This document shows positions 36,330 to 38,851 of a stretch of DNA of 64,000 nt, piece after piece. Within the stretch, counting starts at the first letter, position 1, and each line of letters starts with the position of its first letter. Where the stretch lies: contig DXJO01000006.1 in NCBI GenBank assembly GCA_019057475.1, positions 64,001 through 128,000 of the forward strand. The letters run 5' to 3'. The position numbers and the translations under genes are program-made. The DNA is from Candidatus Thorarchaeota archaeon. GTDB lineage: Archaea; Asgardarchaeota; Thorarchaeia; Thorarchaeales; Thorarchaeaceae. The notes beneath the pieces were generated by a model. That model was not told the origin of the DNA. It ran no database searches and worked only from the letters and a program-made list of their open reading frames with translations.

Positions 36330-37637
36330 TCAGGCTTCGATAGCCAAATCTGCAAGGGATTCCTTCATGAGCCCTTTGAAGTCAAAGCCCATCATTCGAG
36401 CCATCAACATCATCGGTAGCAGAACGTTTCCGAAGACTTGGAACGCACCTGCGCCTCCGCCCTCCTCACCTGCTTCGCCATTCATTCCTCCTCCAAAGAG
36501 AGTCACATCGCCTATGTCAATATTCTCATAGAGCTGAGGCAATACGGCAAGAAAATCTCTTGCAAAGGCCTGTGGCGTGTAATCCTTGGCGGCATCCAGT
36601 GTCTGGCGAATACCCTCGGCTTGCGCGCTTGTGACCTTCAATATCTTCTCGGCGTCAGCCACCGCGACGATACTTATGCGTTCAGCATCGGCTCTCGCCT
36701 GCTGAAGTATTCGCTGCGCTTCAACCTCTACTTCCTGCTTGATTTTTCGCTGCTTCTCAGCTTCAGCCTTGAGCTTGGCGACTTCAAGATCCTTCGACGC
36801 ATCGACCTCGGCCTGCTGCTTTTCATAACGTTTCTGCATCAGGTCCTTCTGAAGCTCGATTTCTAGAACGCTTTGCTGTCGTTGCTGCTCCGCTTCCTGA
36901 ATGGCACGTAGTTGATCTTGTTCTTGAATGCCAATGTACTTGTCCTTCTCGATCTCTTTATCTCGCAGTATACGAATCTTTGCGATATCGCTTGTACCAG
37001 TTGCTTGATCCGCCTCAATCGTAGCTATCTGGGCAAGACGACGCATCTCAGCCTCACGAGGCTTCGACATATTCTGCAAAAAAGATTCATTGACAACTGC
37101 AACGTCTACTAACTCAACAGTGACCACCTTGAGACCCCATTCGGAAATGACATCCACGAGTTCCTTCTTGATTGCTTCAATGATTAGCTGGCGCTCTTCA
37201 AGAATCTCCTCGACTGACAACTGCGCACAAGCCGTTCTGATGACTGACTCTATGATTGCCGTTAGGCGCGCTGGAATTTCTTCCCAATGTGTATTATTGA
37301 TCGTCGCGATGGCGTTGTCAGCCTGCCATTGAAGGACAGTACTGAGCCTTATCTTCTGCTTCTCTTTGGATAGTACTGACTCTGCATGGATGTTCAGCTG
37401 TTGGACCGTTCTATCAATCGCAAGAATGCGGTCAAGAAAAGGAATGCGTACAACCATTCCCCCTTCGCCCTGCTTGATGGGCTTGCCTTTACGCAGGTGC
37501 ACGTAGAATACATTCGGGTCAAAAATGCGAATGTACTTCTTGATGTAGAAGGTGATCAACAGTACTACCAATATACCGAGAAATGCAATGGATAGTCCAA
37601 AGTTCTGAGCAAATATGTCCATTATTCCCGCTTGCAT
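36330..37637 (-). CDS. SPFH/flotillin-like membrane scaffold protein
   Basis: N-terminal TM, SPFH domain (IIESVIRT..AQLSVEEILEER...WGLKV) and a long AEA-rich coiled coil. Confidence 0.85.
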   Translation of the reverse strand: MQAGIMDIFAQNFGLSIAFLGILVVLLITFYIKKYIRIFDPNVFYVHLRKGKPIKQGEGGMVVRIPFLDRILAIDRTVQQLNIHAESVLSKEKQKIRLSTVLQWQADNAIATINNTHWEEIPARLTAIIESVIRTACAQLSVEEILEERQLIIEAIKKELVDVISEWGLKVVTVELVDVAVVNESFLQNMSKPREAEMRRLAQIATIEADQATGTSDIAKIRILRDKEIEKDKYIGIQEQDQLRAIQEAEQQRQQSVLEIELQKDLMQKRYEKQQAEVDASKDLEVAKLKAEAEKQRKIKQEVEVEAQRILQQARADAERISIVAVADAEKILKVTSAQAEGIRQTLDAAKDYTPQAFARDFLAVLPQLYENIDIGDVTLFGGGMNGEAGEEGGGAGAFQVFGNVLLPMMLMARMMGFDFKGLMKESLADLAIEA

Positions 37638-37667
37638 TTGTTTTTCTACTCACATCTCTTTTTTAGA

Positions 37668-37832
37668 GAGTGCACCTAAAACCCACAGCCCTCTTCCTTC
37701 CACTGAGAACGCGGTACTGTGTGGTTTGACCTATGTACCTCTATCTTAGGGCATTGGATAGGTCGCTTCATCCCTCGGAGTTCAGATCCCCCAACGAGAC
37801 ATCAGAATCCTGCTTCGGGTTCTGGTGCACTC
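37668..37832 (-). ncRNA. unidentified multi-stem RNA / riboswitch-like 5' leader
   Basis: Terminal helix GAGTGCAC(C)/(G)GTGCACTC encloses four hairpins (37803-37824, 37771-37799, 37728-37764, 37679-37727). Most non-WC pairs are G-U on the minus strand, and the element begins at the predicted TSS. Confidence 0.7.
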
Positions 37833-37853
37833 ATGTTCATATTGTATTCTAAC

Positions 37854-37867
37854 GTTATAAATTCGCG
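37854..37867 (-). promoter_or_regulatory. BRE/TATA promoter
   Basis: Minus strand CGCGAA-TTTATAAC, ~29 nt upstream of the RNA 5' helix. Confidence 0.65.
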
Positions 37868-37921
37868 CCGAGATTTGTGTCTTATCGACAATCGAATGAA
37901 GCATTTCGATTATGACTTCTT

Positions 37922-38851
37922 TTACCGTTGGAGTTTCTGACTTTGCTTATGTTGACCCTTGACCACTTCGATTCTTGGATCAACAAATACGAACTTATCA
38001 TTTGCAGAAACTACATAGAGCGTCATCCCTTTCCTGAATACAAGTCCCTGCTGTAATGGTCGTGCATGGAATCTTCTGAGACCCATCTCGGTTTCATACC
38101 TTACCTCACCAAAGTCATCGCTTATGGTGGAGACTGCTTCAACTTCTTGTCCTACAATGTGTTTTGGCTCGATGCTAAAGCCTGACTCCACAAACACCTT
38201 CCCAAGTACAGTTCGTACCAAAAATACAAGCAGAGCCGCTCCGATGAACTGGAAGCAAATTTTCGCAGCAAGAGGTGCTAGCAGTCCATCATAGTACACT
38301 ATAGACCCCAGAAACCCGACACTGACAAGAGATGTTCCGATAGTGACGCCCAGTGGAGCGCCCCTTGCGGCTTCGAAGAAACCTGAGTGATCACCTGCTT
38401 CAACATCATAGTCCAGTTCATGTTCGTGGTCAGTATCATGCTCTGTGTCGTGATCAGCTTCATGGTCTGCATCGAGGTGATGCTCCATGTCATGTTCTAC
38501 ATCGTGCTCGACTTCGTGTTCAACATCTGTCTCCAACTGATGCTCTATGTCATGTTCAACATCGTGATCGTAATCATGATCGACGTCATGATCAATCTCA
38601 ACGTGTGTATCGTAGTCATGTTCAATGTCGTGTTCCATATCATGGTCATAATCGTGTTCAACATCATGCTCAATGTGATGATCCAAGTCATGTTCTGCTT
38701 CGTGGAAAACATCATGCTCATGCCCGTGTTCAGAAATTGCAGCAAAGAGTCGTCCCATCAGAAACATGCCGAAGGTGTAGAAAAGCCCCACAAGAAGTAT
38801 CCCAAATGAAATCTCACGTAGTATGATTGCTAACGGCATGAATTCTTGCAT
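37922..38851 (-). CDS. NfeD/YqiJ-like flotillin partner with long His/Asp/Glu repeat
   Basis: TM, ~115-aa His-rich loop, two TMs and a C-terminal OB-like domain (VGQEVEAV..I..DFGEVRY...G...FHAR). Lies upstream of the SPFH gene. Confidence 0.8.
   Translation of the reverse strand: MQEFMPLAIILREISFGILLVGLFYTFGMFLMGRLFAAISEHGHEHDVFHEAEHDLDHHIEHDVEHDYDHDMEHDIEHDYDTHVEIDHDVDHDYDHDVEHDIEHQLETDVEHEVEHDVEHDMEHHLDADHEADHDTEHDTDHEHELDYDVEAGDHSGFFEAARGAPLGVTIGTSLVSVGFLGSIVYYDGLLAPLAAKICFQFIGAALLVFLVRTVLGKVFVESGFSIEPKHIVGQEVEAVSTISDDFGEVRYETEMGLRRFHARPLQQGLVFRKGMTLYVVSANDKFVFVDPRIEVVKGQHKQSQKLQR
38385..38731 (-). repeat. coding tetrad repeat [DE]-H-[DE]-hydrophobic
   Basis: EHDV/EHDY/DHDM/EHDI... with 12-nt periodicity; about 29 His by manual count. 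Confidence 0.9.

Follow-up and report, generated by a model that had tools for sequence, protein, structure and literature searches.

A Structured 5' Leader with a Co-Evolving Long-Range Helix Precedes a Flotillin-like Gene in a Thorarchaeota Family

Introduction

Stem-loops at the 5' terminus stabilize bacterial mRNAs, as in the 5' UTR of Escherichia coli ompA and in the aprE and ermC leaders of Bacillus subtilis. Methanogen mRNAs with long regulatory 5' UTRs, for example Methanosarcina mtaCB1, are thought to be controlled post-transcriptionally. To our knowledge, few conserved cis-acting structured mRNA leaders have been catalogued for archaea. We found no description of the element reported here in the literature, and none of such leaders in Asgard archaea.

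In this study, we analysed a stretch of 64,000 nucleotides from a Candidatus Thorarchaeota genome, hereafter the window. A preliminary description had proposed a riboswitch-like five-way-junction RNA on the minus strand, ahead of a flotillin-like gene. We found a strand-specific structured RNA before the SPFH/flotillin gene; the riboswitch reading was not supported. The element is real, family-wide and uncatalogued, and a riboswitch claim is not justified at present.

Results

Locus and Gene Layout

A 284-nt gap on the minus strand of the window separates a 309-aa ORF (37922-38851) from a 435-aa SPFH/Band_7 ORF (36330-37637). The latter is the SPFH/flotillin-like gene downstream of the leader (Pfam Band_7, 1.3e-22), and its product matched the FloT and HflC models of NCBIfam weakly, below their cut-offs. 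Read along the minus strand, the gap contains a TATA-like box (37855-37861), a 9-bp helix starting at 37832, and a 30-nt A-rich linker that leads to the ATG. The leader of this genome is untranslated and folded, and is roughly 195 bases long. The element was found once in the 3.34-Mb genome using blastn and a covariance model, and it sits only before flotillin. A MITE or other repeat element was ruled out by this single copy.

The 309-aa ORF on the minus strand encodes a membrane protein that is NfeD-like by position only. Its gene adjoins flotillin upstream in several genera and also in the sister family. The protein gave no Pfam match, and neither did its C-terminal 102 aa when E values up to 10 were allowed. 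The His/acidic repeat of the protein gave only low-complexity matches, to Ser-Asp-repeat adhesin models.

Promoter and Predicted Transcription Start

An archaeal promoter was recognized on the minus strand at 37855-37868, where the TATA-like box (37855-37861) is preceded by a G+C-rich BRE-like stretch. The TATA-like box proposed earlier for this strand is present, and it is invariant among the genus relatives, in contrast to the divergent spacer on its upstream side. A TTTATA box was found in all genera at an equal distance from the helix. From the TATA spacing, transcription is predicted to start on the minus strand between 37829 and 37834, most likely at G37832, which is 29 nt after the first T of the box. 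In all lineages, the long-range helix begins 27-31 nt past this T. The helix onset thus appears to fall within about 2 nt of the expected start, which is itself predicted.

In most genera, a perfect 8-bp palindrome, CTGCGCAG, immediately precedes the TATA box in the promoter of flotillin. It is 8 nt long and ends 1-2 nt before the box in L018, L020, L032, L036 and others. The equivalent position in the window is about 37862-37870, where the palindrome is degenerate in this genome (GGCGCG). This palindrome may be a transcription-factor site overlapping the BRE.

RNA evidence came from Logan contigs of three RNA runs, all from one study and from a relative about 93% identical. A fourth run from another study is probably DNA, and it covers only part of the flotillin coding region. 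Contigs from the RNA libraries extended without interruption from flotillin coding sequence into the leader (37305/37370 to 37798), which is compatible with one transcript but is no proof of it. At 37829-37832, contig ends from this one study carried fold-back joins, which as contig features cannot show RNA ends. Positions 37840-37893 were not covered by the RNA-library contigs of this study and this relative. The helix foot was crossed by unbroken contigs in two of the three RNA runs, and in one run there was a break at 37654-37668.

One contig of run X3 followed the leader from 37798 to 37668 and then continued with 92 nt unlike the window, switching exactly at the helix foot. The first 30 nt of the continuation matched G000:C54:26500-26523 (23/24), a 5' UTR-like segment of this genome just upstream of a replication-factor-C small-subunit-like gene. 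Run X3 also had a fold-back contig turning at 37654/37664. The X3 break at 37668 may reflect template switching at an RNA end, an A-run that varies between strains, or another copy of the leader in an unsampled relative.

Fold Stability, Strand and Selection

The minimum free energy (MFE) structure of the minus strand predicted by RNAfold was a five-way junction, which was also the centroid (-67.3 kcal/mol; z = -2.89; not matched by any of 200 shuffles). The trimmed leader of this genome had a folding z of -3.41, and the plus strand of the same stretch folded more weakly (z = -2.35). Among 26 homologous leaders, the mean folding z was -3.0 against dinucleotide shuffles, and 22 of them were at or below -2.2. 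The fold is thus better than shuffles, both in this genome (z about -2.9 to -3.4) and across the family. The antisense strands averaged a z of -1.55 and were on average 11.7 kcal/mol less stable than the sense strands. The earlier preference for the minus strand was borne out, since the sense strand was the more stable in 24 of the 26 leaders and one-sided C-to-U changes in the closing helix yield G-U pairs on the minus strand only.

The 169-nt core of the leader was 91-95% identical to that of four genus relatives, compared with 71-85% at the four-fold degenerate sites of the two flanking genes. Substitution in the core is thus roughly a quarter to a half as frequent as at four-fold sites. 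These results indicate that the leader RNA is under purifying selection. Indels of 1 nt inside the core rule out coding on either strand.

The Closing Helix Co-Evolves across Genera

The closing helix, P1, is formed on the minus strand by 37824-37832 (5' strand) and 37668-37676 (3' strand). The preliminary description gave this helix 8-9 bp; it is present as 9 bp and is the best-supported part of the leader. It occurs in both the MFE and the centroid folds with pair probabilities of 0.74-0.997, and the one-sided C-to-U changes in relatives keep its pairing. The helix foot is about 29 nt upstream of the flotillin start codon in this genome. P1 may be continued by about 10 bp, giving about 19 bp with a bulge and a mismatch. 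In this extension, minus-strand segment 37812-37823, which can otherwise form hairpin 1 with 37804-37810, pairs with 37678-37689 on the same strand; the five-way model uses the latter segment as the 3' strand of hairpin 4. Pairing of the first 24 nt with the distal segment was computed to give a duplex of -33.2 kcal/mol in this genome. The MFE folds of nearly every lineage pair the transcript from bases 1-5 onward with a segment ending about 25-33 nt before the ATG.

The helix sequences differ greatly from genus to genus. Co-evolution was scored as the duplex energy between the first 24 nt and the -75 to -18 segment, using 48 unique leaders. The mean was -19.7 kcal/mol for cognate pairs, compared with -14.1 kcal/mol for non-cognate ones. 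When 24 clade representatives were used, the sum over cognate pairs had a z of -9.4, which was reached by 0 of 20,000 permutations. The signal was found both in the core 12 nt (z = -6.1) and in the following 18 nt (z = -4.25). The negative controls were null (5' end against interior, z = +0.4; interior against 3' segment, z = +0.2). Using mirrored windows, significance held up to a 24-40-nt window on each strand and then faded. Because co-evolution extends past the core and holds in the mirrored windows, the conserved object is a long, imperfect basal helix and not merely 9 bp.

The Interior Varies between and within Genera

The preliminary description had placed four hairpins in a five-way junction inside P1. 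This is the MFE fold here, but it is not conserved, and hairpins 1 and 4 are broken in genus variants. Hairpin 2 (minus strand, 37770-37800) is the best-supported interior stem and occurred in the MFE of all five genus variants. Two substitutions in L058 turn it into a perfect 7-8-bp stem with the register shifted by one; no pair was changed on both sides. Hairpin 3 (minus strand, 37728-37764) has an invariant outer 7 bp and two one-sided compatible changes in its inner pairs, and loses its apical 3 bp in L058. Hairpin 4 has its 5' strand at 37716-37727 of the minus strand in the MFE fold, and this strand has an alternative local pairing with 37702-37706. In L058, hairpin 4 is weakened and the local alternative gains one pair.

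Two genus variants bear on whether the five-way junction or the extended helix is the better model. A G-to-A change in L017 disrupts a pair of hairpin 1 and yields an A-U pair in the P1 extension (37812-37823 with 37678-37689). L058, a metagenomic variant, carries five changes that disrupt hairpins 1 and 4 yet preserve or repair the P1 extension. The five-way junction was preferred in this genome (-65.0 vs. -56.5 kcal/mol for the extended helix), and the preference was reversed in L058, where the extended-helix fold was the MFE at -67.6 kcal/mol. With the five genus sequences, RNAalifold gave a structure comprising extended P1, hairpins 2 and 3 and one small local hairpin; the five-way junction was not returned. 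Pair counts in the genus cannot separate the two models, since 96.5% of cells were paired in the five-way model and 96.1% in the extended-helix model, neither with a both-side change.

Across genera, the predicted leader shapes included rods and three-, four- and five-way junctions. Plain MAFFT aligned leaders from different genera only at their two ends. Interior 6-8-mers common to the genus representatives did not exceed shuffled controls, and the absence of a cross-genus interior motif beyond composition indicates that there is no conserved aptamer core. Purine-rich interior motifs suspected by eye were rejected because they were not above base composition. Local stems resembling hairpin 1 showed no family-wide co-evolution (z = -1.2 and +0.4). 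Resemblances to a K-turn, a C/D box, a bulge-helix-bulge and a group II 5' end were sought by eye only, and none fitted. Upstream-region covariation had been suggested as a check on the element; the long-range helix does co-evolve across genera, and the interior architecture is not conserved.

RNAalifold gave a weak consensus for the largest genus (-0.7 and -15.2 kcal/mol), with no both-side pair changes. In this genus (alignment A5, columns 1-65 vs. 100-128), the 5' half of the leader was almost invariant among ten species. The 3' half due to pair with it varied, often without compensation. A nearly invariant 5' half with a drifting 3' half hints at a sequence-specific partner for the 5' half.

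Distribution of the Leader

Using blastn and covariance model R1, which was built from three genus sequences, recognizable copies were obtained in same-genus genomes only. Across 87 genomes of the order, R1 recovered only its three source sequences. Homologues in other genera were located via the flotillin protein. Flotillin orthologues with 74-80% identity were found in 40 of 86 family genomes and 11 of 16 genera, and also in metagenome contigs. Wherever the upstream DNA sufficed, the same layout preceded the orthologues, in at least 11 genera of the family, namely the membrane-protein gene (where detected), the TTTATA promoter, the leader, the -16 motif and the ATG. Leader lengths in the family ranged from 135 to 240 nt, and more than 130 nt were kept in every lineage.

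In the sister family (L023, L070 and L104), the upstream gene and flotillin abut with few bases between them and without a leader. This indicates that the leader is a lineage-specific addition. From this comparison of sequences, the promoter and leader look like an insertion specific to the family of the window. In these sister-family loci, the upstream gene carries a Shine-Dalgarno-like GGGGAT within its terminal part.

The proposed absence of the element from known families was confirmed with Rfam. Neither the window nor any of 15 homologous loci matched one of the 4227 models at gathering score. When E was relaxed to 10, the sole match in 37500-38000 was a chance CRISPR-repeat on the other strand.

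The Linker, the -16 Motif and the Proposed Switch

The linker from the helix foot to the ATG (minus strand, 37638-37667) is A/G-rich, with 61% A and 82% purine. Its predicted unpaired probability was 0.64, compared with 0.32 for the leader body, and the family means over 26 leaders were 0.63 and 0.37. It contains a GTGAG-TAGAA motif (GTGAG at 37649-37653), in which GTGAG and then TAGAA occur at -16 from the ATG and are conserved across genera. The 3' end of the 16S rRNA is the usual GGATCACCTCCT. Across 1906 long ORFs of this genome, the start of GGAGG falls at -15 to -12 and that of GTGA at -10 to -8. The GTGAG had been regarded as an RBS-like site, which does not agree with its start at -16 before flotillin. 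Judged from its sequence and position, the motif is too far upstream and too conserved for a plain Shine-Dalgarno site. Since the GTGAG is 6-8 nt upstream of the usual Shine-Dalgarno position, masking it is unlikely as a means of translation control.

According to the preliminary description, the 3' strand of P1 could instead form a hairpin covering this site, the two folds being mutually exclusive. We found that this hairpin (37665-37672/37651-37659) does not compete thermodynamically with P1. Its energy was -6.4 kcal/mol vs. -15.7 kcal/mol for P1, and its outer pairs had a probability of 0.003 vs. about 0.99. L058 has lost the inner pairs of this hairpin, and L017 the outer ones. The P1 3' strand and the -16 region showed no family-wide co-evolution (z = -1.15). 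A small hairpin beside the -16 motif had a marginal family-wide signal (z = -1.9). No U-run was seen after the structure when the sequence was read.

A leaderless uORF (MSAPEPEAGF) had also been proposed at the start of the transcript. It carries a 1-nt deletion in L024 and L073 and an ATG-to-GTG change in L073, and it is absent from most genera. A leader-peptide or uORF attenuator was rejected because the short ORF is not conserved and most genera have no ATG there.

Discussion

The flotillin gene of this family is preceded by a leader whose closing helix co-evolves across genera and begins at the predicted transcript start. With the mRNA 5' end sequestered by the helix, an effect on stability, translation or processing is most likely. 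The reading that we favor, at what we judge to be an even chance, is that the element is a cis-acting structured 5' UTR of the flotillin mRNA that acts post-transcriptionally via protection of the 5' end. The flotillin mRNA would be transcribed from its own TATA promoter and would begin with the structured leader. Its first nucleotides would be clamped by the long imperfect helix to a segment ending about 29 nt before the start codon, and the helix would enclose a stable domain whose shape varies by lineage. The paired 5' end would shield the transcript from 5'-end-dependent decay and so set the half-life and translation level of the mRNA, and the unpaired A/G-rich stretch 3' of the helix may serve as a landing pad for the ribosome. 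The action is most likely constitutive or factor-dependent rather than metabolite-sensing, and the element is probably not a metabolite riboswitch. The analysis shows the helix and its co-evolution, the fold stability, the strand, purifying selection and the tie to flotillin throughout the family; where transcription starts and how stability or translation is affected are inferred.

Several observations fit 5'-end protection poorly. A simple local hairpin would suffice for it, and the model does not account for the interior of more than 100 nt found in every lineage. Nor does it give a reason for the purifying selection on the interior at the genus level. The nearly invariant 5' half in the largest genus hints at a sequence-specific partner that the model does not name. 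The conservation of the -16 motif and its distance from the ATG also count against it.

In the closest rival reading, the basal helix would be a processing stem at which a double-strand-specific endonuclease frees the leader as a separate stable RNA; the flotillin mRNA would keep a 5' UTR of about 27-30 nt. Both the release of the leader and the shortened mRNA are unlikely in our judgment. The co-evolving basal pairing, which extends to a 24-40-nt window per strand and comprises about 19 bp here, would suit such a stem, as would the near-constant distance of the helix foot from the ATG. This genome also has a 196-aa RNase III-domain ORF (G000:C27:19210-19509; locus L115:1222-1812, plus strand; PF00636, 48.2 bits; PF14622, 39.9 bits). 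The ORF lacks a dsRNA-binding domain, and no dsRNA-binding (dsrm) domain was found in this genome. Such an ORF was found in 80 of the 87 genomes from the order, with 24 of 24 positive among those of high quality; the RNase III domain was found in 0 of 4 archaeal control genomes. Because the nuclease is present with or without flotillin, its distribution gives no specific link to the leader. Processing is opposed by the contigs of two RNA runs that cross the helix foot unbroken, and inspection of the helices by eye showed no bulge-helix-bulge pattern. The multi-branch MFE of this genome with its short linkers, the strong genus-level purifying selection on the interior and the His/acidic repeat in the upstream gene product would instead suit a riboswitch-like or factor-responsive switch, in which a ligand, metal or protein at the junction tips P1 against the RBS-masking hairpin. 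That hairpin can be drawn at 37651-37672, and the hairpin adjacent to the -16 motif is marginal (z = -1.9). However, the switch model fails every family-level test that was run. There is no cross-genus interior motif, the architectures differ between and within genera, and P1 has a probability of about 0.99 vs. 0.003 for the alternative, with a z of only -1.15 between the P1 3' strand and the -16 region. Moreover, the GTGAG lies 6-8 nt beyond the usual Shine-Dalgarno position, no Rfam model matched, and the element occurs before flotillin only, with no second genomic copy. We therefore consider the switch quite improbable. Broader versions of both ideas can be taken jointly, namely a new Asgard-specific class of signal-sensing RNA that controls the amount of a membrane-microdomain scaffold, or a separate stable RNA excised at the helix by the RNase III-domain protein; this too seems improbable. 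In the sensing version, the signal could be a protein, a metal or a membrane-related cue, and local hairpins would compete with the extended 5'/3' helix.

Flotillins are linked to membrane order, and the fold of the 5' UTR could depend on temperature and tune flotillin to membrane fluidity, in a manner like cspA. The length of the leader and the two competing folds in the genus, with the preference reversed in L058, would agree with such an RNA thermosensor. Against this, the stability of the closing helix precludes melting at physiological temperature, and no conserved temperature-labile Shine-Dalgarno hairpin was found. RNA thermometers of the ROSE and fourU types hold the Shine-Dalgarno sequence or AUG in a weak hairpin; the start region here is predicted to be open in all folds, so that melting would unmask nothing. 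A thermosensor is therefore very improbable. The leader might also have no specific function and be a spacer acquired with the internal promoter, its structure being incidental. The variation of the interior between genera and the lack of a known family would agree with this reading. The co-evolving helix and the consistent excess of fold stability, together with core substitutions reduced relative to four-fold sites and the more than 130 nt kept in every lineage, speak against it. This reading is already disfavored, and we regard it as highly unlikely.

The leader is tied to one gene across the whole Thorarchaeota family, and its helix is statistically supported. It offers a handle on how mRNA stability or translation of a membrane-scaffold protein is controlled in eukaryote-related archaea. 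It could also seed a new Rfam family.

Compared with known systems, the leader shares a structured 5' position, the closing helix P1 and, in this genome, a multi-branch interior with riboswitches such as those for TPP, fluoride, NiCo and Mn. Unlike these, it lacks a conserved core and a competitive expression platform, matches none of 4227 Rfam models and is not associated with any metabolite or transport gene. As in the RNase III stems of bacterial 5' UTRs and rRNA precursors, the sequences on either side of a structured segment form a long imperfect helix, and the genome encodes an RNase III-domain protein; the protein here differs in being Mini-III-like without a dsRNA-binding domain, and contigs cross the helix foot in two of the three runs. 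The mRNA of Methanosarcina mtaCB1 is likewise archaeal and has an unusually long leader, of 150-200 nt, although its sequence is unrelated and both the lineage and the gene differ. The ompA, aprE and ermC stabilizers are bacterial, while the host here is an Asgard archaeon. The helix of this leader also differs from theirs in being long-range, with 130-200 nt between its strands, and in enclosing a large domain. By analogy, the flotillin leader resembles these stabilizers in having a helix within a few nt of the (predicted) 5' end, a putative single-stranded ribosome-binding stretch and an apparent action in cis on one gene. The unstructured ribosome-binding region 3' of the helix that characterizes such stabilizers has its counterpart in the linker, whose mean predicted unpaired probability over the 26 leaders is 0.63 vs. 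0.37 for the leader body.
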